Shown here: positions 7,700 through 56,757 of the stretch, one piece after another | Layout: each line of letters opens with the position of its first letter | Position numbering within the stretch: the first letter of the stretch is position 1 | Source: Candidatus Parvarchaeota archaeon | GTDB lineage: Archaea; Nanobdellota; Nanobdellia; JAFCGN01 | Assembly: GCA_017609105.1 (NCBI GenBank) | Contig: JAFCEQ010000001.1 | Span: 47,407-111,406, forward strand | Length of the DNA stretch: 64,000 bases | Reading direction: 5' to 3' | Program-made: the position numbers and the translations under genes | Notes under the pieces: generated by a model | What the model saw: the letters and a program-made list of their open reading frames with translations, nothing else | Databases searched by the model: none | Told to the model about the DNA's origin: nothing

Positions 7700-8066
7700 T
7701 GATTTCTTTATTTTCTCTCTTGCCTTGCTTTTAATTATTTTTTCCTGTCCTTCTTTCACTTTGCCTTATTTTTTATTTTCTTTCTTTTCTTTCTTCTCGC
7801 TTTTTCTTGTCCTTTAACTTTCCCTTATTTTTTTCTGCTGACTTATTCTTTATTTTTCTTAATTTTTTTCCTTTGCTTTCTTTATTTTTTACTTTTCCTG
7901 CTGCGCTTTATTCTTTATTTTTCTTAATTTTTTTCCTTTTTATTTTCTTGCTTTGTTTTGTTTGCCTTATTTTTTCCTGCTGTTTTATTCTTTGTTTTCT
8001 TTCTTTCCTGCCCTTTAACTTTTTATTTTCTTTCTTCTCGCTTTTTCTTGTCCTTTAACTTTTCCC
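7700..8066. repeat. Pyrimidine-rich (purine-rich on the coding strand) degenerate tandem repeat tract 3' of rpl14e, with units of ~65-70 nt related to the rpl18/rpl19e leader element
   Basis: Repeated cores such as ttattctttatttttcttaatttttttccttt occur twice, tttctttcttctcgctttttcttgtcctttaactt occurs twice and tttgccttatttttt(c)ctgc occurs three times. They share the gccttatttttttcctgc-ttattctttatttt core with the 14372-14534 and 15166-15326 copies. Confidence 0.6.
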
Positions 8067-8378
8067 TTATTTTTTTTCTTTTTTTGCTGTTGTTTTTTTC
8101 TTAGTTTTTTCTTGTTTCTTTTCTTTTCTTGTTTTCTTGTCTTTTGTTTTTAATTTGAATCCTGCTTCAATCAATGCTTTTCTTGTTTCTTCTGTGCTTG
8201 CATTCTTTTTTATTTTTAAGATTACTGGCGCGAAATCAAGGTGTGCTATATTGCATTTCCTTCTTTTCACATCGCCATCAATAATCACGAACTTATCATC
8301 AAGTTTGTCTATAATAACGCAAACACGTCCGGCTTCTCTTCCTGCAATTTTAATACAAACTCTTCCAATTTCTATCAT
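8067..8378 (-). CDS. rpl14e: 50S ribosomal protein eL14 (KOW domain) with a K-rich C-terminal tail
   Basis: MIEIGRVCIKIAGREAGRVCVIIDKLDDKFVIIDG is the eL14 KOW signature. The cmk-rpl34e neighbourhood matches. Confidence 0.8.
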   Translation of the reverse strand: MIEIGRVCIKIAGREAGRVCVIIDKLDDKFVIIDGDVKRRKCNIAHLDFAPVILKIKKNASTEETRKALIEAGFKLKTKDKKTRKEKKQEKTKKKTTAKKEKK

Positions 8379-14371: not shown

Positions 14372-14534
14372 TTTTCCACCAATTTCATTCTTAATTACTC
14401 TTTTATTTTACCTTATTTTTTTCCTGCCACCTTATTCTTTATTTTCTTTTTTCTCCTCTTGCTTACCTTATTTTTCTCTTCTCCATCCCCTATTTTTTGT
14501 TTTCTTTTTTCTCCCTTTGTTTTGCCTTATTTTT
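14372..14534. repeat. ~160-nt leader/intergenic element, copy A (5' of rpl18, 3' of rpl19e); near-identical to copy B
   Basis: catttttccaccaatttcattcttaattactcttttattttaccttatttttttcctgccaccttattctttattttcttttttctcctcttgcttaccttatttttctcttctccatcccctattttttgttttcttttttctccctttgttttgccttattttt matches 15166-15326 with only a few substitutions and indels. Confidence 0.7.
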
Positions 14535-15165
14535 TTGTCTTTTTTTCTTTTTTCTCTGTGTTTTTCTTTGTTTTACTTGTTTTCGCGCGTTCTTCTTGTT
14601 TTACTTGTTTTTTTTGTGTTTCTTGTTTTTTTTGTTTCTTGTTTTGGTTTTCTTTTTCTTGTGCTTTGTTTTTTAGTAGTTCTTTTAATTTTTTTTCTTT
14701 GTTTTCTTTGTATTTGGTTAAATCTTTTTTCATTGTTTTTGTTAGGTAGAGTTCAAGGTGTGAGATGCTTCTGAAAAAGTTTCCTTTTGATTTTAAGTAT
14801 AATTCTCTGTATTCTTTGTTAGTGATTATTTTTGAGTTTTTTAATTCTTTTAGGAATCTTCTTTGAGGTCTTATCTTATTTATCCATCTTCTTTTCTTTG
14901 GATTTCTTGCTTTGAAGGTTCCTTTTCTTTTGCCTTGCCCGCTTCTTCTTCCTTTTCTTTTTTGTGCTAGTACTTTTTTCTTTCTTCCTGAGCTTATTCC
15001 TTTTTTTTGTTTTTTTGTTATGATTTTGTTTTTTATTAATGAACGAACATCTGCTCTTGTGATTGCTTCTTTTATTTCTTTGAGTTTTTCAACATTGAAT
15101 TTAACTCTTTTTTTTCCTGCTTTCAGTAGTTTTGCTCCTAATCTTTTTTGTGTTCTTAATTTCAT
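14527..15165 (-). CDS. rpl19e: 50S ribosomal protein eL19 with a K-rich C-terminal tail
   Basis: MKLRTQKRLGAKLLKAGKKRVKFN...GRRSGQGKRKGT matches eL19. Confidence 0.9.
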   Translation of the reverse strand: MKLRTQKRLGAKLLKAGKKRVKFNVEKLKEIKEAITRADVRSLIKNKIITKKQKKGISSGRKKKVLAQKRKGRRSGQGKRKGTFKARNPKKRRWINKIRPQRRFLKELKNSKIITNKEYRELYLKSKGNFFRSISHLELYLTKTMKKDLTKYKENKEKKLKELLKNKAQEKENQNKKQKKQETQKKQVKQEERAKTSKTKKNTEKKEKKTKK

Positions 15166-15326
15166 TTATTCCACCATTTCATTCTTAATTATTCTTTTTT
15201 GCCTTATTTTTTTCCTGCCACCTTATTCTTTATTTTCTTTTTTCTCCTCTTGCTTACCTTATTTTTCTCTTCTCCATCCCTATTCTTTGTTTTCTTTTTT
15301 CTCCCTTTGTTTTGCCTTATTTTTTA
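15166..15326. repeat. ~160-nt leader/intergenic element, copy B (5' of rpl19e, 3' of rpl32e)
   Basis: Near-identical to 14372-14534, including the SD-like GGTGG immediately upstream of the ATG. Confidence 0.7.
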
Positions 15327-25877: not shown

Positions 25878-27419
25878 TCAAATTTTTTCTTTAAGAAGGG
25901 CTTCAATAGAATACCTATTCTCTCTTGTTATTTTTTCAGGATTTGTTACATGAAGAAAGGTTATTTTTTCTTCATCAAATCCTATCCTATTTCTTTCCTC
26001 ATCTATTTTTACTACTTTCTTCCATCTTCTCATATCTTCTTTTATTTCTTTTAATTCAATGTTTAAGTCTTTCAATATTTTTCTGAATTCTTTTCTAAAG
26101 TTTTTAAAATTTTCAGGAAGTTTATTATCTTCTTTTCTTATCCTATAAGCAGTAATTTCTTTTTTATTAGGAGGTTTAACTTTTACTTCTTCTAATAACC
26201 CTGCTTTTTTTGCAACGAGCAAGTGCAAATTAATTGAATTTTTTGAAGCATGCATAAATGTTTGTAGATAATTCTTTGTTTTGAATGATTTATGTCTTAA
26301 AATATCTGTTAAAAAATAAAATCTAAGCAATGAAGAATTATTACTGAATTCTTGATTATATTCAAAAGATGACATAAAATATTTGTATTCTTCTTCATTC
26401 ATTACTTGAGAAGCAAGTTCACTTAATGGTGGAATAAAGAATTTCACAGCTTCAAAATTATAATTTTTTTCTTTTAAAACAGCGGATTTGCTGAGAATTG
26501 CTTCAATTCCTACTGTTCTTATCTCACCAATTCTTCTGAAACCTCCTTTCGGGTCTCTTGTTAAAACTTTTCTCCCCCTATTAATTAATGAGTACACACT
26601 CATTGGATCGCAGAAATCATTTATTAAACAAGAATTACAAGCATTTTTATCATAAATATCTAAAAAAGTTGGCTTGTTTTTTTTTAATTCTAAAAGCTCG
26701 GAATGCGTTTTTCTAACTTTCTCTTCAAGAAGTTCTTCTCTTCCAAACCTTTGTATTTTAATTCCAGAACTCTCCTTATTAAATAAAAAGTTAATTAAAA
26801 GTCCTTCATCAGACGGAAGATTATATTCTTCTTCGCAAAGAATATTATATAATAAAAGTTGTAATTTAGGTTTTTCAAAATTTGTTTCATTTACTTTTAA
26901 ATCAATAGGCACTGCTTGTTTCTTGTTTTCTCCCCAAAACTCAATTTTATCAGGAACTCCTACAAGTTTTTTATTTAATCCTTTTAATCTTTCAATTCTT
27001 CCATCAAGAAGGATTGCGTCCTCAAAAACTCCTTCCACAGAGTATAAATTAAATTTCTCGTCTAATGCAGAAACATACCTAGCGTAGTTCAAAGAAGATA
27101 ATTCATTAATAAACGCGTTTATCACGTTTTCTTGCAATTCAAAAGATATGAGTTTTGGTTTTGGAATTAAAAAATTGTTTTCATATGATTCTTTGAAATC
27201 TGAAAAAAAGATTTCATCATTAAATCTTTTATGAACAAGTTGTTTATCAATCCTAATTGATTGAGAAAACAAATTATGAGCAAGAGTATCAATTTCAATT
27301 ACAGGAGTGTAAATATGCCTTCCTTTTCCTAACCAATGCCTCCAAAGCCAATAATTATAACATGTGCTGAAATCCACGAGTTCTGACACACTATTATAAT
27401 TTCTTCTGCCTTTTTTCAT
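25878..27419 (-). CDS. Cas4-like / RecB-family PD-(D/E)xK nuclease with Fe-S cysteines, fused to a ~250-aa C-terminal domain of unknown function
   Basis: N-terminal Cys in SELVDFSTCYNYWLW, motif II ILLDGRIERL, motif III VPIDLKV, QxxxY motif KLQLLLY, and three-Cys cluster CNSCLINDFC (C-x2-C-x5-C) at ~aa 260. The protein continues ~250 aa further. Confidence 0.6.
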   Translation of the reverse strand: MKKGRRNYNSVSELVDFSTCYNYWLWRHWLGKGRHIYTPVIEIDTLAHNLFSQSIRIDKQLVHKRFNDEIFFSDFKESYENNFLIPKPKLISFELQENVINAFINELSSLNYARYVSALDEKFNLYSVEGVFEDAILLDGRIERLKGLNKKLVGVPDKIEFWGENKKQAVPIDLKVNETNFEKPKLQLLLYNILCEEEYNLPSDEGLLINFLFNKESSGIKIQRFGREELLEEKVRKTHSELLELKKNKPTFLDIYDKNACNSCLINDFCDPMSVYSLINRGRKVLTRDPKGGFRRIGEIRTVGIEAILSKSAVLKEKNYNFEAVKFFIPPLSELASQVMNEEEYKYFMSSFEYNQEFSNNSSLLRFYFLTDILRHKSFKTKNYLQTFMHASKNSINLHLLVAKKAGLLEEVKVKPPNKKEITAYRIRKEDNKLPENFKNFRKEFRKILKDLNIELKEIKEDMRRWKKVVKIDEERNRIGFDEEKITFLHVTNPEKITRENRYSIEALLKEKI

Positions 27420-27447: not shown

Positions 27448-27471
27448 CTTTTTTTAAAGATTACTAATTAA
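27448..27471 (-). promoter_or_regulatory. Promoter-like element shared with tuf (22-nt identity ttttttaaagattactaattaa on the plus strand; TTAATTAGTAATCTTTAAAAAA in gene orientation)
   Basis: Identical 22-mer at 43537-43558 upstream of EF-1alpha. It ends in the TATA-like CTTTAAAAA ~35 nt before the Cas4-like ATG. Confidence 0.35.
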
Positions 27472-39990: not shown

Positions 39991-41091
39991 TTATTTCTCG
40001 TAAGCATTGATTATCTCAGCATAAGAGTATTCAGGGGTTTTGTAAACAAGTGTTTTCGCCCAAACCTTTAAAATAAATGGTTTATCCTGAACATTGTAAT
40101 TAATATCAAATTCAAAATCCCTCCACTCCTTGAATCCTTTTTCTTTTGAAAAAGAAATTTTTTCTGTCTTATTTGTTAATACACTCCCGTCTTCTCCTAT
40201 TAATTCAATCTTAACACTTGTTATGTTATAAACATCTATGAAACCAATTTTTTCTAATTCAACGTATAAATCTTTTTCTCCTACAAAAGGCAACCACTTT
40301 GGAGCATGAGAAGTTAATCCCCAATTATCTTCATAATGAGCTTCTTGCACTTCTTCTGGAAGGTCCTTGAATAAGGGCATGTCGCAGTAAATCTTGCCTC
40401 GCACTCTTGTTTTATTATTAATTATTTTATATGTTAAGTTCTCAATATTGCAAAGCGTGTTATATTCTGTTTTGTTTTCACTCCACTTAATTGTTTCAGG
40501 CATAGTATTGTTAAAGAATTTTTCAGAAATCTGAAATGTTTTATTACTTCCATTAGCATTAATGAGAATATAGCCTTTGCAAGAAGAAACAATAGAATCA
40601 TCCCTATTCTTAAATTGCAGAACATAAGGAACTCTTGTTGTAAACCAAGAAGAATGATTGCTAAGATTTGTTAAATTAATGTTAATATTTGTTTTAAGTG
40701 TTTTCTTGCCTTTAACAAAATTATCAGAAAGTGAAATGCTAATGCAATTAAAACAAGTATTTGAACTATTTTCTAAAAAAAGTTTTTCAAATCTTTGAAT
40801 CTCATAATCATCAGTTATTATTATTGACTCGTTTGGAATAACTTCAAGGAATTTATCATTGCAATAAACATTATCTGCTTTTACAGGAAGTGAAAAAACG
40901 CTTTTATTCATAATATCTGTGGCATTAATTGTAAGATTAAAATCAGTGCAAACTGGATTAGTTTCTTCAATATCTCTTGCACAACCTAAACCTTCTCTGT
41001 CAAAAACAACCATTCCTGTAGTATTAGTGCACCCAAATAAAAAAGAAACTAAGAAAATGCTAATAAAAAAAATCATTTCTTTTTTAATCAT
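39991..41091 (-). CDS. Secreted or lipoprotein-like hypothetical protein
   Basis: Signal-like N-terminus MIKKEMIFFISIFLVSFLFGCTNTTG, with many N-x-S/T sequons. Confidence 0.4.
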   Translation of the reverse strand: MIKKEMIFFISIFLVSFLFGCTNTTGMVVFDREGLGCARDIEETNPVCTDFNLTINATDIMNKSVFSLPVKADNVYCNDKFLEVIPNESIIITDDYEIQRFEKLFLENSSNTCFNCISISLSDNFVKGKKTLKTNININLTNLSNHSSWFTTRVPYVLQFKNRDDSIVSSCKGYILINANGSNKTFQISEKFFNNTMPETIKWSENKTEYNTLCNIENLTYKIINNKTRVRGKIYCDMPLFKDLPEEVQEAHYEDNWGLTSHAPKWLPFVGEKDLYVELEKIGFIDVYNITSVKIELIGEDGSVLTNKTEKISFSKEKGFKEWRDFEFDINYNVQDKPFILKVWAKTLVYKTPEYSYAEIINAYEK

Positions 41092-41154: not shown

Positions 41155-41463
41155 TTAATCAACTATTTGCATTTCAATATTAACATCTTTTGGGATTTGA
41201 ATTTTAATTATTAATCTTAATGCTCTTTCATCAGCTTGTAAATCAATTAATCTTTTATGCACTCTTAATTCCCAAGTTTCATAAGATTCTCTTCCACTCC
41301 CGCAAGGACTTCTTCTTACAGGAACTTTTAATTTTTTTGTCGGAAGTTTTATTGGACCTTTTAATGGAACTCCTGCTCTTTCAGCAATGCTTTTAATTTG
41401 CTCGCATAAAGCATCTAATTTCTTTGGATCCGTACTTAATAATTTAACTCTTGCTTTTGACAT
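41155..41463 (-). CDS. rps10: 30S ribosomal protein uS10
   Basis: [50 protein letters not shown]...HKRLIDL. Confidence 0.9.
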
Positions 41464-41479
41464 AACGAGATATCACAAC

Positions 41480-41510
41480 AGTTTAATTTAAAAAGTTTAT
41501 GCTACTTATA
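41480..41510 (-). promoter_or_regulatory. Candidate rps10 promoter (TATA-like TTTTTAAAT in gene orientation preceded by the conserved AAGTAGCATAAAC motif)
   Basis: A 16-nt motif aaagtttatgctactt on the plus strand is shared with the EF-2 upstream region at 45958-45973. The TATA-like box lies ~30 nt before the ATG, so the mRNA is probably leaderless or has a short leader. Confidence 0.35.
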
Positions 41511-42212: not shown

Positions 42213-43484
42213 TTACGCTTTTTCTATAATGTCTATGCAAACGCCAGCTCCAATAGTTGAGCCCATGTCCCTGATTGCAAAACTTGATAATTGTGGTATA
42301 TCTGATTTCTTTTCAATAACCATTGCTTTTGTTGGTTCTATTTCAACAATTGCTGCGTCTCCTGTTCTTAAAACATCAGGGTTTTCTTCTAAAACTGCTC
42401 CTGTTTTTGGATCAAGTTTTTGCAATAATTTTGTGAATTTGCATGCAACTTGACTTGTGTGGCAGTGGAATACTGGTGTGTATCCTACTGTTATAACAGT
42501 TGGATGATTAAGCACTATGATTTGTGCTTTGAATTTCTTAGCCACTGTTGGTGGGTTATCCACTGGACCTAAAACATCTCCTCTCTTAATTTGGTCTTTT
42601 CCAACGCCTCTTATATTGAATCCGATATTGTCGCCAGCTTCTGCTTTTTGATATGATTCATGATGCATTTCTATGCTTTTCACTTCTCCAACAACATTGC
42701 CAGGTTGCACAACAACTTTTTGCCCTACTTTCATTTCTCCAGTTTCAATCCTGCCAACAGGAACTGTTCCAATACCTGTTATTGAATAAACATCTTGGAT
42801 TGGAAGTCTTAATGGCAAATTAACTGGTGGTTCAGGCACTTCAAACAAGTTAAGTGCTTCAACAAGTGTTGGTCCATTATACCATTGCATTTTATCGCTT
42901 TTCTTTACTATGTTATCTCCCATTAATGCGCTTACAGGCACGAAATGCATTTTTTCTACATTATACCCTATTCCTCTAAGAAGTTTTGATAATTCTTCTT
43001 TTACTTCATTGTATCTTTTCTCATCATAATTCACAGTATCCATTTTATTGATTGCTACATTAATTTGTTTAACTCCTAAGACCTTACTAAGGTATGCGTG
43101 TTCTTTTGTTTGTGGCATTATACCGTCTTTTGCATCAACAACTAAGATCGCTGCATCAGCTTGGCTTGCTCCTGTGATCATGTTTTTAACAAAATCCCTG
43201 TGTCCTGGAGCGTCAATAACAGTAAAGTAGTACTTGTCTGTTTCAAATTTTCTGTGCGCTAAGTCAATTGTAACTCCTCTTTTTCTTTCTTCTTTTGTTG
43301 CATCAACAGCATAAGCGAACTCCCAAGTTCCCTTTCCATATTCTTCTGCTTCTTTTTTGAATTTTTCAAGATCTTGTTGAGAAAGTGCTCCTGTTTCATA
43401 GAAAACTCTACCAATAAGAGTTGATTTTCCGTGGTCTACATGTCCTATGAAGACCAAGTTCATGTGTGGTTTATCTTTTGCCAT
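42213..43484 (-). CDS. tuf: Translation elongation factor EF-1alpha (aEF1A)
   Basis: [18 protein letters not shown] and NKMD G-motifs, with full-length collinear EF-1A sequence. Confidence 0.95.
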
Positions 43485-43536: not shown

Positions 43537-43558
43537 CTTTTTTAAAGATTACTAATTA
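43537..43558 (-). promoter_or_regulatory. Candidate tuf promoter element (22-nt identity with the Cas4-like gene upstream region)
   Basis: ttttttaaagattactaattaa on the plus strand. An AGGTGAT SD lies 8 nt before the tuf ATG. Confidence 0.35.
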
Positions 43559-43601
43559 ATTTATTTTTATTATTAATAATCTTTTATTAGTATTGATTTT
43601 T

Positions 43602-45785
43602 TTATTGGTTTATGCCTTTTCGTTGTTTTATTTTCTTTATTGTTTCTTCTTGTAATTCTCTTGGGATTCTCTCGAACTCTGAGTCCTTTAAAGACCAAAC
43701 GCCTCTTCCTTCAGTTTCACTTCTTAAAGCACTTGTAAACCCGAACATTTCTGCGACAGGCACTTTTGCTGTAATAACAACAAGAGATGGTTGTTGTTCC
43801 ATGTCTATTAATTGTCCTCTTCTTGATTGAATGAGTTTGTTCACAGAGCCCATAAAATCTGTTGGAACATCTATTCTTATTGTTTGAATTGGTTCAAGCA
43901 AGGTGTATTCAGTGCTCATAATCGCGCTTTTAATAGCATCTCTAACAGCAGGAATTACTTGTCCCGGTCCTCTGTGTATTGCATCTTCGTGAAGTTTTAC
44001 GTCCACAAGTTTTACTTTAATCCCGCTTACTGGTTCTTTAGCAACAGGACCTGCTTTCATCACGTCTTCAAATCCTTGCATAACCATTTCTATAACTTCT
44101 TTTATGTGAACTTCTCCTTTTGTCATGTCTAAAAGCAAGTTTCCGTTGTAAATATCAACTACTGACCTGCTTTCTTCTTTTGAAAGTCCTGCTTCTTGTA
44201 ATTTTGTCTGTAATTCAGGAAGTTTCTTTTTAATTCTTCTTTCTTGAATATCCCCTTTCATTATTGCTTCATAAACTTCTTTTTCAAGTGGTTCAACAAA
44301 AATGTAGAACTTATTGTGTTTGTTCGGAGATTTTCCTTCCATTGTCTCGCTTTGTTTTTGAACAGTTTCTCTATAAACTACAAGGGGTTCGCTTGTGATA
44401 ATCTTTATACCTCTGTCTCTTTCAATAATATGTTCTTTTATTTCAAGATGTAATTCTCCAAGCCCGCTGATTAAATGCTCGCCTGTTTCCTCATTTATTT
44501 CTACTTTTAATGTTGGGTCTTCTTTTACAAGATCTCTTAAAACCCTTATTAATTTTGGAAGGTCTTTTGGGTTTTTCGCTTCAATTGCTTTTGTTACAAC
44601 TGGTTCAAAAATGTGTTTAATGTCTTCAAATGGTGTTAATTCTTTTTTTGTAGTTAATGTTTCTCCACTGCTTGCGTTCTTAAGTCCAGAAAGTCCTACA
44701 ATGTTTCCTGCTGGAACTTCTTCCATTGAAAATTTATGATCTCCTTTAAAAATGTATATTTGTTGGATTCTTTGATCACTTATAGCTTTAACAAGATGAA
44801 TGTCCATTCCGCTTCTTAAAGTGCCGCTGAAAATCCTGCCAACAACTAATTCTCCTGCTTGAGGGTCTACAATAACTTTTATTGCACAAAAAATAGCAGG
44901 TCCTTTTTCATCACAATTAAGCAATGCTTTTCCTTCAGGACTTTCTAAATCTCCTTGCCAAATTTTTGGAATCCTGTATTTTTGTGCTTCCACAGGATTT
45001 GGGTAATGATGCACTGCCATATCAAGCACTGCTTCATGAAGAGGTGCTTTTTCTTGTAATTTTTTTAATGCTTCTTTTCTTTCCTCTTCTTCTAAAGCAT
45101 ATGCATTATAAACATCTTTAAAGTTTATTCCTTTCTTTTTCATTATAGGAACACTTAAAGCCCATTTATCAATAGCACTGCCAAATGCTACAGTCCCGTT
45201 ATCAACGCGCACTTGCCATTCATTCTTAAATTCTTTTGGTGCAAAGGAATAAATTAACTTGTTTATTTTGCCAATCATTTGAGTTAATCTTTCTTGCATT
45301 TGCTCAGGCGTTAATTTTAATTCATTTATTAACCTGTCAACCTTGTTTATGAATAAAACAGGTTTTACTTTTTCTTTTAATGATTGTCGTAAAACTGTTT
45401 CTGTTTGAGGCATTGCACCTTCAACAGCGCATACAACAACAAGAGAGCCGTCCACTGCTCTCATTGCTCTTGTAACATCTCCTCCAAAATCAACGTGTCC
45501 TGGAGTATCAATTAAGTTAATTAAATATTCCTTGCCATCAACTTCGTGCACCATGTTCGCTGTTGCGCTTTGAATCGTAATCCCTCTTTGCTGTTCTTCA
45601 TCCATTGTGTCAAGAGCTCTTTGTTGTCCTGCAGTCTCATAAGAAAGCATTCCTGCTCCTGCTAAAAGAGAATCAGAAAGAGTTGTTTTTCCATGATCAA
45701 TATGAGCGATTATTCCCATATTCCTTATTCTTTCTTTTAATCCAATCAATCGTTTAACTTTATCAATCATTGTTTCCTTTGCCAT
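43602..45785 (-). CDS. fusA: Translation elongation factor EF-2 (aEF2)
   Basis: AHIDHGKTTLSD, DTPGHVDF, NKVD and the diphthamide-region residues. Confidence 0.95.
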   Translation of the reverse strand: MAKETMIDKVKRLIGLKERIRNMGIIAHIDHGKTTLSDSLLAGAGMLSYETAGQQRALDTMDEEQQRGITIQSATANMVHEVDGKEYLINLIDTPGHVDFGGDVTRAMRAVDGSLVVVCAVEGAMPQTETVLRQSLKEKVKPVLFINKVDRLINELKLTPEQMQERLTQMIGKINKLIYSFAPKEFKNEWQVRVDNGTVAFGSAIDKWALSVPIMKKKGINFKDVYNAYALEEEERKEALKKLQEKAPLHEAVLDMAVHHYPNPVEAQKYRIPKIWQGDLESPEGKALLNCDEKGPAIFCAIKVIVDPQAGELVVGRIFSGTLRSGMDIHLVKAISDQRIQQIYIFKGDHKFSMEEVPAGNIVGLSGLKNASSGETLTTKKELTPFEDIKHIFEPVVTKAIEAKNPKDLPKLIRVLRDLVKEDPTLKVEINEETGEHLISGLGELHLEIKEHIIERDRGIKIITSEPLVVYRETVQKQSETMEGKSPNKHNKFYIFVEPLEKEVYEAIMKGDIQERRIKKKLPELQTKLQEAGLSKEESRSVVDIYNGNLLLDMTKGEVHIKEVIEMVMQGFEDVMKAGPVAKEPVSGIKVKLVDVKLHEDAIHRGPGQVIPAVRDAIKSAIMSTEYTLLEPIQTIRIDVPTDFMGSVNKLIQSRRGQLIDMEQQPSLVVITAKVPVAEMFGFTSALRSETEGRGVWSLKDSEFERIPRELQEETIKKIKQRKGINQ

Positions 45786-45870
45786 AATTTATAACCTCTA
45801 CTTATTTGTTTTTTAAAACAAACTTGAAAAATAATTTATTTTTTTAAAAAGCTTTCGAGAGTTAATTCCC

Positions 45871-45925
45871 AGCAAGGATGAAAGAATTGGATGGGGGATG
45901 ACAAAAAAAGACTTCCATCCTTGCT
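45871..45925 (-). ncRNA. Stem-loop (14-bp inverted repeat, one mismatch) within the ~250-nt EF-2 leader/intergenic region; a possible structured regulatory RNA element
   Basis: agcaaggatgaaag ...27-nt loop... cttccatccttgct. A GAGGT SD-like motif lies 9 nt before the EF-2 ATG. Confidence 0.3.
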
Positions 45926-45944
45926 AAGAATGATTTTAATCACA

Positions 45945-45975
45945 AAAGAAGTATTTAAAGTTTATGCTACTTTTT
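45945..45975 (-). promoter_or_regulatory. Candidate promoter upstream of EF-2 carrying the conserved motif shared with rps10
   Basis: aaagtttatgctactt (45958-45973) is identical to 41492-41507. In gene orientation it is AAGTAGCATAAACTTTAAATAC (TATA-like). Confidence 0.3.
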
Positions 45976-46035
45976 TAACATGTTTAAAATTTTTTTCCTC
46001 TTAACTTCCCTAGTTTTTAGTTATTAAATTTTTTT

Positions 46036-46659
46036 TTACCTGCTTGCTTTTGCTTGTCTTTCAACTTCCATGCGTTTGTTCACAGAAAAACTTTTTGAAT
46101 CATTCTGGCTTGCAAGAATGAGTTCATTAGCAAGTGCTTTTGCGAAACTTAATTTTTTTCCTGCACTTGCTTGATAACTTGATTGAGTTATCCACCTAAG
46201 AGCTAAATCAACTCTTCTTTGAGGCGCAACATCAACGCATTTAGGGTGTCTTGCACCACCATACTCAATAACTGTTGTTTCTTGCATTGGAGCGCTGTTT
46301 TCAACTGCTCTAACAATTACTTCAACAGGGTTTTTGTTTGTTTTTTCTTCAATTATTTTCATTGCTTCTCTAACAATGTTTGTTGCTAAAGAATATTTTC
46401 CAACGTTTTTTCCGCTTGAACGCTTATGTTTTTTGCCTCTGTGCCCTGTAATACCTACTTTATTTATTAATCTTTCAACAATGTGCATCTTGCTTTTCCC
46501 AAACCTCTTACTATTATGTTTTCCTGCTGTTCTTGGAACAATAATAGGTGTTAAATTAATGTATTCTCGAAGTCCTCTATCTCTCACAATAATGTTAGAA
46601 TCATAAAGATTGAAGAGAAGTATTTTTTCAATTTCTTTTTTATCTTCTGTTTTATTCAC
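46036..46659 (-). CDS. rps7: 30S ribosomal protein uS7
   Basis: YDSNIIVRDRGLREYINL...GKKHKRSSGKNVGKYSLATNIVREAMKIIEEKT. Confidence 0.9.
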   Translation of the reverse strand: MNKTEDKKEIEKILLFNLYDSNIIVRDRGLREYINLTPIIVPRTAGKHNSKRFGKSKMHIVERLINKVGITGHRGKKHKRSSGKNVGKYSLATNIVREAMKIIEEKTNKNPVEVIVRAVENSAPMQETTVIEYGGARHPKCVDVAPQRRVDLALRWITQSSYQASAGKKLSFAKALANELILASQNDSKSFSVNKRMEVERQAKASR

Positions 46660-46660
46660 T

Positions 46661-47098
46661 TTATCTCACCGGTTTTTGTTTTCTTCCCCTAACTAATTCT
46701 TTTAAAGAAGTTCCAACAACTTTTATAACTTTAAATTTAACTCCTGGCATGTCACCTGCACTGCCTCTTTGAGGTCCTCCAACTCTTGTAATTAATACTT
46801 CATTATGTTCGTCCACGAATTTCATTGCTCCTTCTCCTGGCAAGTGTGCTGTAACTGTTTCCCCTGTTTTAGCGAGTTGGACTTTCACACATTTTCTTAA
46901 ACCACTGTGAGGCTGTTTAACTTCAACTTGCACTTTTTCTAAAACAATGCCTCTTCCTTGAGGACTTCCTCTTAAAGGATCGTTTTTCTTATAAGTTTTC
47001 ATAATCATTTGATAAGCATTCTTTTTAGCAAATCTGAATTTTTTTCTTCTTTTCAGTAATTTTCTTGCTGCAAATAATCCTCTTGTTTTTTTAGCCAT
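46661..47098 (-). CDS. rps12: 30S ribosomal protein uS12
   Basis: SPQGRGIVLEKVQVEVKQPHSGLRKCVKVQL...VTAHLPGEG. Confidence 0.9.
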   Translation of the reverse strand: MAKKTRGLFAARKLLKRRKKFRFAKKNAYQMIMKTYKKNDPLRGSPQGRGIVLEKVQVEVKQPHSGLRKCVKVQLAKTGETVTAHLPGEGAMKFVDEHNEVLITRVGGPQRGSAGDMPGVKFKVIKVVGTSLKELVRGRKQKPVR

Positions 47099-47221
47099 GA
47101 GAAAATAAAATTCTCAATTCATTTAAAAATGTTTTGATATTGTTTCCTCTTAGTTTATTTATTTCTTCTTAATTTATTAAAAAAAAAGTATTTATTAAAA
47201 AAAGAAATAATTAAGGTTATT

Positions 47222-47512
47222 ATGATAACTTGTTATCATGTTTTTTTTAGGGGAAGAGTTCAAGGAGTGTGCTTTCGTGCTTTTTGCAAGAGTGTTGTTG
47301 ATGAATTCAATAAATTAAATAAAAAAGTAACGGGTTTTGTGAGGAATTTAGAGAATGGTGAAGTTGAATTGCTTCTTCAAGGTGAGGAAGGGATTGTTAG
47401 AAAAGTGTTTGAGAGAATAAGAAAAGGCAATGATTATTGCAGTATTTCAGAAATTAATTTAAGAAAAGAAGATCCTCAAAAAAAATATGAGGATTTTATT
47501 ATATTATATTAA
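47222..47512 (+). CDS. acyP: Acylphosphatase
   Basis: GRVQGVCFRAFCKSVVDEF...GFVRNLENGEVELLLQGEE is the acylphosphatase signature. Confidence 0.7.
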   Translation: MITCYHVFFRGRVQGVCFRAFCKSVVDEFNKLNKKVTGFVRNLENGEVELLLQGEEGIVRKVFERIRKGNDYCSISEINLRKEDPQKKYEDFIILY

Positions 47513-47520
47513 ATTTTTTT

Positions 47521-47949
47521 TTAATTAAATTTGATTTCATCAATATTGTAATATTTTTTTATGAATTCTTCAGCTCTTTTCATTTTCACTTTAGCAAGCA
47601 TTCTTGTTTTAGTTATTGTTGCGTTCAAAATTTTGTTCCCGTCTTGATCCTCGCTTAAATAAGGATTTTTTATTTCTATTGGCTTAAATAATTTTATTAA
47701 GAATTTAATAGGATCCTTACTGAATTCAATTATTTCTATTTTTTTGTTAAATTTTTCAGTTAGTGTTTTAACATTCATTCCTTTTTTTCCAATAGCTATT
47801 CCTGCATGCCCTTCTTTAACTACAAAAGTTATTTTATTATCTAAGGGAATGCAATCAACAACATGTGCTTTCGTGAGTTTTTCAAAAAGACTTATGTAAT
47901 GTATTGCTTCTGTGTCTAATCTAATTCTTGCTTTCAATAAAAATTTCAC
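47521..47949 (-). CDS. nusA: Archaeal NusA-like transcription termination factor (KH domains)
   Basis: KH GxxG loop AGIAIGKKGMNVKTL. Position between rpl30e and rps12 as in archaeal RNAP operons. Confidence 0.75.
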   Translation of the reverse strand: MKFLLKARIRLDTEAIHYISLFEKLTKAHVVDCIPLDNKITFVVKEGHAGIAIGKKGMNVKTLTEKFNKKIEIIEFSKDPIKFLIKLFKPIEIKNPYLSEDQDGNKILNATITKTRMLAKVKMKRAEEFIKKYYNIDEIKFN

Positions 47950-48209
47950 CCCTTTATTGCTATTACTGAAATATTAAAAGGTTTCTTACAAAGAATTCCA
48001 AGTTCTTTGTTGTTTCCTTTAAACATTTTTATTGGAATATTAGTTATTTTTGAAATACTCTCTAATTCTTCTTTCACATTTATTGGTGTATTCTGCGCGA
48101 AAATCACGAGTTTGCATTTCTTGTTCTTCATTAAATTTATTGATTCTTTCGTGCCTATTATTGCTTTGTTTGATTTAACTGCATTAATTATTTCTTTGTT
48201 TAAATCCAT
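47946..48209 (-). CDS. rpl30e: 50S ribosomal protein eL30
   Basis: 87 aa with KLVIFAQNTP...ELGILCKKPFNISVIAI. Context rpoA''-rpl30e-nusA. Confidence 0.8.
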   Translation of the reverse strand: MDLNKEIINAVKSNKAIIGTKESINLMKNKKCKLVIFAQNTPINVKEELESISKITNIPIKMFKGNNKELGILCKKPFNISVIAIKG

Positions 48210-48212
48210 TTT

Positions 48213-49364
48213 TTATTCACCTTTTTTCTTCTTATCCTTGATTGTTTTTTTATTATTTTCTGCTTCATTCACAACTAATTTCACAATTCCTGTTCCTACT
48301 GGTACTGTTTGGTTTATCATAATATTCTCTATAACTCCTTTAAGTTCATCCTTTTCTTTTCTTGTTGCAGCATTATATAAGTGTTTTAAAGGAACTTCAA
48401 AACTTGCTCTTGCAAGAACGCTCTCCTGTTTTTTACTCACGCCATATCTTGTTACTCCTCTTATCATGCCTTCAAGCGTCATTGTGTCAGCGATAAGCAT
48501 TATGTGTCTTAAATTAACGTTTAATCCTTGATCCTTTAAAGTTAAGATTATTTCCCTGATTATTGCGTTTCTCGCAGCTTCAATGCCTAAAACGCTTGCT
48601 ACTTCAAAAATATTATTGCTTATAGTTTTTGTTGGATCCACTTCTTCCATAAGCAATATTTTCTTAAGATTAGTTCCTGCTGTTTGGATTATCCATCCTC
48701 TTGTTTTTTTTATTGGAAGAACTTGAGTTATTCCTTTTATTCCTCTTATATGAATATCTTTTAATTTTGTTTTTAATTTATATAAGTCAATAACTTCTAT
48801 TTCTTTTTTAGGAGTTATTTTAACTAATCCTTTTTTTAAAACCTTAACATCTTCTTCACTGAATATGTTTTTCAAAGTTTTTTCCACATCTTCAAGAGTT
48901 AAAGCATAATTTTCTAAAGATTCCATAGAAATTTGAGCTTCAATCCTAAAATCAAGAAGATTAACAGTAATGCTTTCCATAATATCTTCAAACTTGATTT
49001 CAAGGATTTTTGCTGCAATTTTTTTAACAGCTTCCTCATCATCTCTGTAAGGTTCTTTTAAAAAGATTGTCATGGTTGGCGTGCTTGGCTCTTTTTTCGC
49101 ATCAAAGATTTCTATTAAACGCGGTAATCCTTGCGTAACACTCATTTCAGCAACTCCTGCGAAGTGTTTAGTGTTTAAAGTCATTTGCGTTCCTGGTTCT
49201 CCTAAGGATTGTGCTGCTATCACTCCTATTGCTTCTCCAGGAGTAATCTTTGCTTTTTCATAACTCTCATTTAATTCTTTAAGAATTTTTTTTGCTTCAG
49301 AACTTGAATACTTCTTATTAATCTCATTAATTATGATTTTTGGAATTATTAAATCCTCACTCAT
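48213..49364 (-). CDS. rpoA2: DNA-directed RNA polymerase subunit A'' (Rpo1C)
   Basis: C-terminal third of the largest subunit: [29 protein letters not shown]. Confidence 0.9.
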
Positions 49365-51934
49365 TTTTTATCACCTTCATAGATTTTTCCGCCTTTTGAT
49401 TTAGTTACATCAACCTTGTCATCACCGTACTCAAATTGCACTATTTGTCCTGAAGCATTTCTTACGCTTCCGTCCTTCCATACTTTTAAATCAAGCATGG
49501 CGTTCACTAATCTTCTTTGTAAGTAACCGCTTTTTGGAGTTCTCATACCAGTGTCCATCATACTATCTCTTCCTGCCATTGCATGAAAGAAGAATTCAGT
49601 TGCATTAAGCCCTCCTTTATACCCGTGTTTTACGAAACCTCTTGCCATAGGGCCTAAATCTTCTTTTTCAAAATGAGGCAAAGCTCTTTTCTTATAACCT
49701 TTATTAATTCTCGTACCTCTTAATGCTTGTTGCCCAACTGTTGCAGCAATTAATGCTAAATTAAGAGCGCTTCCTCTTGCTCCTGATTCTGCCATCACAA
49801 TTGTTGGATTTTCTTTAAGATTCTTTTCAACAATATTACTTATTTCATTACGCGCTCTATTCAGGATATCCATTATTTTTACTTCAAGCGTTTCTCTTAA
49901 AGTTCTTCCAGGATATGCTTCCATGTTATTACTCTTGTATTTAGCAATAACTTCATACGCTTGATTTTCTGCTTCTTCTAATCTTTGTTTTATTTTCTTA
50001 ACAAGTTCTTGAGATAAATCAGTGTCTGAAATATAAACGCTGAAACCTCTTTGAGCCAAGTAATTAATGCCTAATAAAGAAATTGCTTGTAAGAATTGTG
50101 ATGTTTTTTCAGGCCCGTACTTAGTGTAGAATTCTTGTAATAAAATACCTTTTCCTGCTCCAATTATTTTTGCATCAATTGTTCCTTCAACAAGTTCTCC
50201 TTTCTTAATCACAACTTTTTCATCAGACTTATTTATTGTTTCAAAATTCAAATCCTTTGGAAGCAATATTGAAAAGATTTGTTTTCCTGTCCAAAACTCT
50301 TTGCCATCTCTTATTTTCTTAGGTTTTGGCAAGGACTCAATATTAAACCCTCCTAATGATGAAAGCAAATTAATTGCTTCTTTTTTTTCTAAATAAACTT
50401 CATTTTTTGTTAAAAGATAATTTCCTGTTATTTGATCTTGTATTGCACCAATGATTGGCAAACCATAACGTGGTGTTATCATATTGTTTATAACATTCAT
50501 TAAAACCTCAACTTCTGAACGAGCCTCATCATTTTGAGGAATGTGAAGATTCATTTCATCACCGTCAAAATCCGCGTTATAAGGCCTTGTTACGCATAAA
50601 TTAAGTCTGAAGGTTTTATAAGGAAGAATTTTGACTTTATGCCCCATCATACTCATTTTATGAAGGCTTGGTTGCCTATTGAATATTGCCCAATCCCCAT
50701 TAATTAAATGCCTCTCAACTATGTACCCAGGAGCTAATTCTTTTAGCACAACCTCTTTTGTCTCATCTGTTATTTTCTTTCTCTTCCCTTCTTTCGTAAT
50801 CACGTAATTCGCTCCAGGATATTTTTTTGGACCGTTCTCAACAAATTTTTTTAACCATTTAATATTCCATTCAGTAACAGTTTCAGGAAATGTTAAATCC
50901 ATTGCCATTAAAATTGGAATACCAACTTCATTAATCTTTATTCGTGGATCAGGACTAATAACAGTTCTTGCACTGAAATCAACTCTCTTGCCTGCTAAAT
51001 TCTTTCTGAACCTTCCTTCTTTGCTTTTTATTCTTTCTTCCAAAGTTTTTAAAGGCCTTCCGCTTCTATGCCTTGCAGGAGGTATTTGATTTATATTATT
51101 CGTAAAAAAAGTTGTCACGTGATATTGAAGTAAATCCCATAAATCTTCTATTATGATTTCAGGAGCTCCTGCATTAAGGTTTTCATAAAGTCTTTGATTT
51201 GTCCTGACAATATCGCCTAACTTATGTGTTAAATCATCTTCGCTTTTAGCGCCTGTTTCTAAAGTAATTGAAGGTCTAGCTGTTACTGGTGGAACAGGTA
51301 ATAATGTTAATATCATCCATTCAGGCCTGCCTGCTTCAGGATTTAAACCAAGATACTCTAAATCATTATCAGGAATGCGTTCTAATCTTTCTCTAATATC
51401 AATGGGTGTTAATCTTGTTCCTTCCTCATTAAAAAAAGAGGGTTTATCAAATTTTATTTTTAATTGTTCTTCCTCACAATGAGGGCACTTCTTAACGTTT
51501 TTAGCTTTTTTTATTATTTCCTTAATAAACGCCCATTTATCAATATCTCCTTTCTGAAGTGAAATATTTTTTAATTTTTCATCATATTTTCTTAAAACCT
51601 CATCACTTAATAAGATTCTTCCGCATTTTCTGCAAGTGCTTGTTAAAAAATTATTTATCCAATTAATATACTTTATGTGAATAACAGGTCTTGCTAATTC
51701 TATTACTCCAAAATGCCCTAAACACTCTTTAACTTTAGAACCGCAAGTCCTGCATCTTAAACCAGGATCAACAACACCCATTCTTAAATCCATTAATCCT
51801 CCATCCACTGGATAACTATCAATATCATAAAGTTCAGGAGTTGTTATCTTCACTACTCCCATTTTTTGAATCATTTTAGGGGACATTAATCTAAATTCTA
51901 TGCTTCCTATTTTTTCTTTTACTAAATCATTCAT
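49361..51934 (-). CDS. rpoA1: DNA-directed RNA polymerase subunit A' (Rpo1N)
   Basis: Zn-finger [16 protein letters not shown], catalytic [12 protein letters not shown], 857 aa. Confidence 0.95.
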
Positions 51935-56637: not shown

Positions 56638-56757
56638 TCCCGCCTCCCGGATTCGAACCGGGAATCTCACGGTAACGGCTAATAAAGAACACGTGTTCGT
56701 GTTCAGCCCTTTAAACCTAACTACAGCCGTGCGCGTTAGCCATTACGCTAAGGCGGG
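56638..56757 (-). tRNA. tRNA-Tyr (anticodon GTA) with a 47-nt intron at the canonical 37/38 position
   Basis: Exons CCCGCCTTAGCGTAATGGCTAACGCGCACGGCTGTAG / ACCGTGAGATTCCCGGTTCGAATCCGGGAGGCGGGA. The C1-G72 pair is the archaeal Tyr identity element. Intron is TTAGGTTTAAAGGGCTGAACACGAACACGTGTTCTTTATTAGCCGTT. Confidence 0.75.

Follow-up and report, generated by a model that had tools for sequence, protein, structure and literature searches.

Archaeal small RNA (sRNA) genes, such as those of the intergenic sRNAs of Methanosarcina mazei and Haloferax volcanii, have a promoter of their own, with a B recognition element (BRE) and a TATA box, and end in a poly-U terminator. In bacteria, stem-loops at the very 5' end stabilize certain mRNAs, as in the Escherichia coli ompA leader and the Bacillus subtilis aprE and ermC leaders, and the RNAIII- and Rsa-type sRNAs of Staphylococcus present C-rich (UCCC) loops. 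Ribosomal protein S7 autoregulates the str operon of E. coli, and most E. coli ribosomal protein (r-protein) leaders are narrowly distributed (PMC3616713). Here we describe a hairpin with its own predicted promoter in the spacer between the genes for S7 (rps7) and elongation factor EF-2 of a Candidatus Parvarchaeota archaeon. The analysis covered a 64,000-nt stretch of contig JAFCEQ010000001.1, referred to as the window, and all positions are those of the window.

The window has a GC content of 30% and carries an archaeal 'str' cluster on the minus strand, where all features described below lie unless stated otherwise. The spacer (45786-46035) is bounded by rps7 upstream (46036-46659; open reading frame (ORF) and Pfam Ribosomal_S7, E=5e-38) and by the EF-2 gene downstream (43602-45785; ORF, with homologues carrying EF-G/EF-2 Pfam domains), and its length of 250 nt, given in a preliminary description of the sequence, agreed with the ORF ends. 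The reading that we favor, with a probability of roughly 0.42, is that an additional, lineage-specific transcription unit (promoter P1, hairpin, and a tract of five U, U5) lies in the spacer, between rps7 and the EF-2 promoter, and that read-through of this unit would provide an EF-2 leader. The element resembles archaeal intergenic sRNA genes in its promoter-structured RNA-U-tract layout, in its intergenic location and a conservation exceeding the neutral level, and in having an exposed single-stranded loop. Unlike those genes, it has no sequence or Rfam relation to described sRNAs, is only predicted, and occurs in two species of one DPANN lineage. The second of these, hereafter the sister species, was represented by three samples with identical spacers (L001, L010, and L018) and has an EF-2 91% identical to that of the window; L001, 'Candidatus Parvarchaeota archaeon Meg22_810_Bin_165', is the closest public genome, and the farther EF-2 matches were metagenome-assembled genomes of Woesearchaeota and Nanoarchaeota.

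The hairpin occupies 45865-45931 and consists of a 5' arm (45912-45931), a 27-nt loop (45885-45911), and a 3' arm (45865-45884). In the gene-sense RNA the arms form 20 uninterrupted pairs, three of them G.U (45931-45912 with 45884-45865), with a predicted energy of -28 kcal/mol. No other uninterrupted stem of such length was found on either strand of the 64 kb, where the runner-up had 15 bp, and the maxima in 10 shuffles were 14-17. The inverted repeat noted in the preliminary description was thus found to be stronger than had been claimed: its 14-bp stem, which includes one A.C mismatch, and its G-rich loop are those of the plus strand, and in gene orientation the loop is C-rich. The fold z-scores were -5.1 for the sense and -2.1 for the antisense RNA of the window, and -5.8 and -3.0, respectively, for L001. 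One G.U pair common to both species becomes a C.A mismatch in the antisense RNA, and the fold was shown in silico to prefer the sense strand. As a predicted structure supported thermodynamically, the hairpin is a real and well-delimited candidate for a lineage-specific structured RNA. Its loop is made up of a U7 tract (45903-45909) and the loop core GUCAUCCCCCAUCCAAUU (45885-45902). The loop core and 3' arm together contain three CAUCC copies downstream of a single GGAUG in the 5' arm, and each of them could pair with GGAUG, so that alternative pairings are possible in principle.

To describe the promoters of this genome we used the pattern AAA[CG]N?TTT(T)(T)AAA[AT], which had 12 matches in the window, nine of them intergenic, compared with 4.8 +/- 2.1 in shuffled sequences. 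In four genes (rps12, rps10, the gene at 39991-41091, and the KOW-domain gene at 8067-8378) the pattern precedes the ATG by 22-23 nt, another match lies 26 nt before tRNA-Ser, and two matches fall inside the S7/EF-2 spacer. A distance of 22-23 nt to the ATG is the archaeal TATA geometry on leaderless genes; this geometry and the preference for starting at a purine after a pyrimidine are documented for archaea (PMC7289017). The first match in the spacer, AAACTTTAAAT (45953-45963), lies in the P1 core promoter, an A-rich BRE followed by a TATA box (AAAC TTTAAATAC, 45951-45963), which has AAACTTTAAATACT in common with the rps13 promoter. The same geometry and the purine rule place the predicted P1 start at A45931, which follows a C and coincides with the first stem base. 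The sister species has all nine nucleotides of TTTAAATAC, likewise 20 nt away from the stem. We consider the P1 prediction, which was made from the sequence, to be strong. The internal promoter proposed in the preliminary description was thereby supported in silico, by a consensus box whose sequence and spacing persist in the sister species; its supposed specificity for translation genes was not.

That supposition had come from a 16-nt motif shared with the promoter of rps10. The window contains the 16-mer AAGTAGCATAAACTTT exactly twice without mismatch, once upstream of rps10 (41492-41507) and once upstream of EF-2 (45957-45972, one position off the 45958-45973 first reported), and each copy is directly abutted, as had been stated, by a TATA-like box (TTTTTAAAT at rps10, TTTAAATAC at EF-2). 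There were 13 exact direct repeats of this kind in the window compared with 3.25 +/- 1.97 in first-order Markov simulations, and an exact 16-mer of such composition, taken alone, is unexceptional. The non-random aspect is that both copies are in register with the box, which is unlikely by chance (~4e-8 per anchored pair, calculated for the 13 nt upstream of TTT). The 3' part of the 16-mer, AAACTTT, is the core promoter consensus of the genome. Its 5' half, AAGTAGCAT, is missing at the EF-2 promoter of L001, L010, and L018, and the 16-mer is not present at their orthologous site. At rps10 the 16-mer lies in a 44-nt block that ends at the ATG; the block is 100% identical in the sister species, where GTAGCATAAAC, which opens it, is retained. 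When up to one mismatch was allowed, GTAGCATAAAC had no further promoter match in the window, the promoters of rps12, rps13, EF-1alpha, and the large r-protein cluster being among those checked. A promoter element enriched at translation genes could therefore not be recognized in the motif, the 3' half of which is the general BRE/TATA consensus. Since AAGTAGCAT is kept at rps10, is gone at the EF-2 promoter of the sister species, and is found nowhere else in the window, the best reading of the shared motif, on sequence grounds, is that the upstream half of the rps10 promoter was recently copied locally. The motif may at most be a species-specific site for a shared factor, and not a general translation-gene signature.

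Two further observations concern promoters of the window. The promoters of EF-1alpha (43538-43559) and of a PD-(D/E)XK-nuclease-like gene (25878-27419; copy at 27450-27471) have an identical 22-mer, TTAATTAGTAATCTTTAAAAAA, in common and form a second promoter 'family', which extends beyond translation genes; the EF-1alpha copy is also the 3' arm of a 13-bp hairpin (43544-43584). The regions from promoter to ATG of rps10 (44 nt, 41464-41507; 9223-9266 in L001) and rps12 (~42 nt, 47099-47140; 3694-3737 in L001) are 100% identical between the two species, whereas four-fold sites are only ~60% identical. These apparently leaderless promoters would thus be under constraint far beyond what a TATA box needs.

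We next compared the spacer of the two species segment by segment, taking as the neutral level the four-fold degenerate sites of five flanking genes, which are 56-69% identical to those of the sister species. The stretch between the TATA box and the stem is 60% identical, with its length unchanged. From the stem onwards, TTCTTAGCAAGGATGGA is identical at 17/17 positions, the loop core GTCATCCCCCATCCAATT at 18/18, and TTCATCCTTGCT at 12/12. The T7 tract in the loop is retained with all seven T beside a 4-nt insertion in the sister species, the arm-to-arm distance being 27 nt here versus 31 nt there. In the following block (CTCTCGAAA(G/C)CTTTTTAAAAAAATAA), which contains the tail, U5, and a second promoter box, P2, 27 of the 32 alignment columns are identical and there is one 4-nt indel. 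The last ~50 nt before the EF-2 ATG are 57% identical. Set against the four-fold sites, these values indicate that the segment from the predicted +1 to the U5/A7 block is under purifying selection. Conservation begins at the predicted +1 and ends after U5/A7, and such edges fit a promoter-to-terminator unit. The stem itself differs between the species by one compensatory change from A-U to G-C, two changes from G.U to A-U, and two terminal pairs that are broken in L001. The broken positions (alignment columns 55 and 71) covary: the segments read AAUUC/GAAUU in the window, and the sister species has AAUUG/CAAUU. Visual inspection thus gave a hint, from one event, of a small hairpin as an alternative fold.

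Conservation of this kind could also arise at the level of the DNA, if the inverted repeat with its CATCC/GGATG repeats were an operator for a transcription factor controlling P1 or P2, or a functionless remnant of an inserted palindrome. Conservation of the arms and of the 'loop' is indeed seen in the DNA, the repeat has a promoter-like box on either side, there are three CATCC and one GGATG, and small palindromic insertions are known in the clade, one being a 41-nt insert in the EF-2 gene of a relative (L019). However, the change in arm spacing from 27 to 31 nt would shift the helical phase of a protein site and would be harmless in an RNA loop, and both the G.U-type asymmetry and the compensatory stem change favor a sense RNA. 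The repeat is also present as a single copy in the window and the 20 loci compared, hence it belongs to no repeat family, and a functionless relic would not be expected to be conserved well above the neutral level. An explanation at the DNA level is thus very doubtful.

The hairpin is followed by the tail CTCTCGAAAGC, T5, and A7 TAA (45836-45861). The conserved T5 (45846-45850), or U5 in the RNA, starts after 14 intervening nucleotides (45864-45851) and is a candidate terminator of P1 transcripts, a poly-U tract after the structured part as in sRNA genes. Poly-U is sufficient for termination in archaea (PMC7289017), and runs of T5-T9 follow many operon-terminal stops in the window. The second promoter box, P2, is the other pattern match of the spacer (AAAGCTTTTTAAAA, 45842-45855). 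It overlaps the T5 tract and has a predicted start near 45819.

The unit that we favor would operate as follows. The BRE/TATA of P1 would direct initiation ~22 nt downstream, at A45931, and the first 67 nt of the transcript would fold into the 20-bp hairpin, which would present U7 and GUCAUCCCCCAUCCAAUU as a single-stranded loop. Termination at U5 would release an RNA of ~85 nt (~95 nt in the sister species). The A/T block would double as P2, and the EF-2 mRNA made from it would have a leader of ~34 nt that includes the Shine-Dalgarno (SD) sequence; P1 transcripts extending past U5 would be EF-2 mRNAs that start with a fully paired stem-loop. The short RNA would accumulate and act through its exposed conserved loop, to which a protein or a G-rich RNA would bind. 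Promoter geometry, conservation above the neutral level, exceptionality of the stem, and strand preference were shown in silico, and the start, the end, the accumulation, and the loop-mediated action of this RNA are inferred.

The U tracts might instead define the 3' end of the rps12-rps7 mRNA, in which case U7 and/or U5 would terminate that mRNA, the hairpin would be a 3'-untranslated stabilizer against 3'-to-5' decay, and P1 would serve EF-2 only. No T run of at least five is present within 120 nt of the S7 stop, the first being U7 at +127, and U7 and U5 are both conserved, as would be expected of such an end. However, termination at U7 would precede transcription of the 3' arm, and archaeal terminators need no hairpin (PMC7289017). 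Conservation, moreover, starts at the +1 of P1 rather than directly after rps7: the interval between the S7 stop and the P1 TATA (45960-46035), at the P1-proximal end of which lies the rps10-like AAGTAGCATAAAC, is 76 nt long here versus 12 nt in L001. We therefore regard this possibility as very improbable.

A purely cis-acting 5' leader, with P1 as the main EF-2 promoter, was also considered. The 5'-terminal hairpin would then protect or regulate an mRNA with a 146-nt leader, either by shielding it from 5'-end-dependent decay or by binding a protein, and EF-2 synthesis would be uncoupled from rps12-rps7. The RNA is adjacent to EF-2 and in the same orientation, and its predicted start coincides with the first paired base, which is the geometry of known 5'-terminal stabilizing stem-loops. 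In folds of the whole leader of both species the hairpin formed autonomously. The SD sequence GAGGT (45794-45798), correctly identified in the preliminary description, lies 8 nt before the EF-2 ATG in the poorly conserved (57%) proximal leader; it is found as TAGAGGT in the sister species as well, and its conservation requires a transcript starting upstream. Thus, the element is like the ompA, aprE, and ermC stem-loops in that it is located at the predicted first transcribed nucleotide upstream of a highly expressed gene. Unlike them, it belongs to another domain of life with other decay machinery, has a strictly conserved loop that a stabilizer does not need, and is separated from the ORF by U-tracts. 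Several results speak against a leader that acts only in cis. The stretch from U5 to the SD is at the neutral level, the predicted leader folds of the two species had no conserved pairing of the hairpin with the SD or AUG, and U7 and U5 lie in the path of the polymerase. P2, a conserved promoter-like box, is present downstream, and L001 also has a box with perfect leaderless geometry, AAAGTTTAAAT followed by 22 nt and the ATG. Finally, mere stabilization would leave the 18/18 invariant loop unexplained. We consider a purely cis-acting leader rather unlikely, less so than the two preceding alternatives.

The hairpin is kept in L001, L010, and L018 and is not present in relatives with EF-2 identities of ~70%. 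In these the S7/EF-2 gap is 5 nt (L012, EF-2 72% identical), 48 nt (L013, 73%), 57 nt (L015, 69%), or 145 nt without the hairpin (L019, 71%). In L014 (72%) a PPDK gene is inserted between S7 and EF-2, L020 (68%) has a different upstream neighbor (GDH), and in L002 (60%) the gap contains a dUTPase-like ORF. A search with a covariance model of the hairpin (R1), run with filters off, found one copy in the 64 kb and, among the 20 loci (L001-L020, including the chance viral matches L016 and L017), orthologous copies only. Genome and metagenome scans, a search of 5.8 billion proteins, and inspection of cluster members for additional relatives yielded only one other species, and the EF-2 of the window had no record of its own. 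An EF-2 promoter box is present 20-35 nt before the ATG in L013, L014, L015, L019, and L020 (68-73% identity). These boxes, and the one in L001, suggest that P1 and the hairpin were added upstream of an ancestral promoter; by this comparison of sequences, the predicted P1-hairpin-U5 unit, present in one copy, arose within one genus-level lineage and was inserted in front of an EF-2 promoter that is older.

The EF-2 gene of L019 has a peculiarity of its own. Its ORF is split within the G1 motif (GIVAH / IDHGKTT) by the 41-nt insert (2906-2950 of JGI Ga0366835_1004041), which is flanked by GCGCA direct repeats and can form a 14-bp hairpin (z = -4.0) with bulges at both junctions. The length of the insert is not a multiple of 3, and the gene caller consequently lost the N-terminus of EF-2. 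A mini-intron, a small palindromic insertion, and an assembly artefact are all conceivable; the bulges do not form a canonical bulge-helix-bulge.

We then examined whether the spacer element belongs to a described class. In a search of the whole window against Rfam 15 at the gathering thresholds only tRNAs passed, and a permissive Rfam search of 45700-46120 gave best scores of 10-18 bits compared with thresholds of 39-45. The match to snoR126 was among the insignificant ones (E=0.94, 18 bits versus a threshold of 39). A box C/D sRNA (C box RUGAUGA, D box CUGA) or an L7Ae/L30e-binding K-turn (tandem sheared G.A pairs beside a 3-nt bulge) was rejected, as the stem is uninterrupted, the sense loop has a single G and no GA, and CUGA is absent. 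No tRNA or tmRNA was found in the spacer. A scan for bacterial-type intrinsic terminators (G+C-rich stem with a U run within 0-2 nt) returned no sites, U5 beginning 15 nt past the stem, and a search for bacterial sigma-70 promoters gave nothing above background. The hairpin is no miniature inverted-repeat transposable element or repetitive extragenic palindrome, because the R1 model and mismatch searches found no other copy in the 64 kb. The coupling to the translation start expected of an autoregulatory r-protein leader was not seen, as the hairpin folds alone and neither species has a conserved pairing with the SD or AUG; the window and the loci contain no rRNA of this organism.

A small protein as the conserved product was likewise rejected. 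The sense ORF MEVFFCHPPSNSFILAGN has 18 codons here and is cut to three (MET) in L001, and an antisense ORF of 37 codons is reduced to four in L001; an antisense ORF of seven codons, MK(E/Q)LDGG, persists and was taken as a by-product of the conserved stem-loop. An antisense-strand RNA would have a weaker fold with G.U pairs turned into C.A mismatches, and the promoter pattern had no match for it on the plus strand. Two IMG/VR matches to the 18-nt loop core, which could have suggested a viral origin, lie inside coding sequence without the arms and are due to chance. The literature search on an element in the archaeal S7/EF-2 spacer found nothing relevant.

What is fixed beyond the stem is the single-stranded U7 and the C-rich loop core, which points to recognition by a partner. 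The hairpin RNA might be an undescribed regulatory RNA of the DPANN lineage, the invariant loop of which would bind EF-2, S7, an Sm-like protein, or a G-rich RNA, with termination at U7/U5 versus read-through tuning EF-2 independently of rps12-rps7. We consider this more specific proposal improbable. The long stem presenting a C-rich loop is reminiscent of the Staphylococcus sRNAs. Unlike in those sRNAs, the loop is not complementary to the SD motifs of the genome (GAGGT, GGTGAT), with which by inspection it does not pair, so that anti-SD mimicry was rejected, and no target in a translation-initiation region was found in the window. No complement of the loop with up to three mismatches was present in the window, and the best loop duplex (-20.5 kcal/mol) was inside an RNA polymerase subunit gene, away from the translation start.

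The preliminary description had suggested an autoregulatory protein-binding site. As in the E. coli str operon, one of the spacers of the S12-S7-EF-G/EF-2 cluster contains a structured RNA, and its phylogenetic range is narrow, like that of most E. coli r-protein leaders. Unlike the E. coli site, which lies between S12 and S7 and overlaps the translation start of S7, the hairpin is downstream of S7 and has its own predicted promoter; its 3' end (45865) is 78 nt from the EF-2 ATG (45785) and 66 nt from the SD. By analogy, then, the likeness to S7 autoregulation in E. coli appears to be positional only. An autoregulatory site was not supported, in that relatives at ~70% identity with the same operon do not have the hairpin and the predicted folds do not couple it to the SD or AUG.

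Several findings weigh against the extra transcription unit as a whole. The hairpin was found in none of the relatives with EF-2 identities of 73% or less, and neither a second copy in the window and the 20 loci nor a convincing target in the window was found. Of the 20 stem pairs, 15 are invariant, and 243 of 500 shuffles matched the observed compensation; with two distinct sequences, covariation is statistically uninformative and supports the fold weakly. U7 is located at ~+23 to +29, within the loop, and by the poly-U logic many P1 transcripts would stop there before the 3' arm is made. It may also terminate rps12-rps7 transcripts, being the first T run after the rps7 stop. P2 and a P3-like box (45808-45819) may be spurious, as TATA-like strings are common in intergenic DNA of 30% GC. 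Lastly, at the rps10 and rps12 promoters the entire region from -42/-44 to -1 is invariant between the species, whereas the TATA-to-start spacer of P1 varies. With respect to U7, the genes of the window contain 29 T runs of at least seven on the sense strand, indicating that T7 is leaky and no absolute stop. The corresponding number of sense-strand A runs of at least seven is 176, an approximately six-fold excess consistent with proteins rich in Lys and/or with internal poly-U terminators being selected against.

The remaining genes of the cluster were assigned by ORF, Pfam, and synteny. Upstream of rps7 are rps12 (46661-47098), NusA-KH (47521-47949), L30e (47946-48209), and the RNA polymerase subunits A'' (48213-49364) and A' (49361-51934). 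A small acylphosphatase gene on the opposite (plus) strand (47222-47512; also at 3129-3404 in L012 and 2810-3106 in L018) separates NusA from rps12 in this clade, which suggests that rps12-rps7 is a transcription unit of its own with a leaderless-type promoter. Downstream of EF-2 are EF-1alpha (42213-43484), a gene for 183 amino acids on the opposite strand, and rps10 (41155-41463). Elsewhere in the window, Rfam detected a 120-nt tRNA (56638-56757), missed by ARAGORN, that has a ~45-nt insert after the anticodon region and probably contains an intron; a consensus promoter box, AAACTTTTTAAT, is found ~30 nt upstream. Exact direct repeats of 79 nt and 40 nt occur ~790 nt apart at 14411-14535 and 15202-15325, and others of 37 nt and 32 nt at 7785-8062. 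They are T/C-rich on the plus strand and may be low-complexity coding repeats, rich in Lys/Glu/Gly, of the minus strand, where the ORF calls are ambiguous.

To our knowledge, the non-coding and cis-regulatory RNAs of DPANN archaea have hardly been explored, as the organisms are uncultured. Given the narrow distribution, the significance of the hairpin stays local unless a partner is found. Within this lineage, the str cluster is predicted to be divided into several transcription units, and the genome appears to follow a promoter rule, AAAC-TTT(TT)AAAT with the ATG 22-23 nt downstream, a distance that indicates leaderless mRNAs. The hairpin is a clean candidate, as it combines a consensus promoter and an exceptional fold with a start predicted at single-nucleotide resolution and with defined single-stranded conserved segments, next to the gene of an essential translation factor. 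If the regulatory-RNA proposal were true, a translational GTPase would be controlled in an archaeon by an attenuator or an autoregulatory leader.

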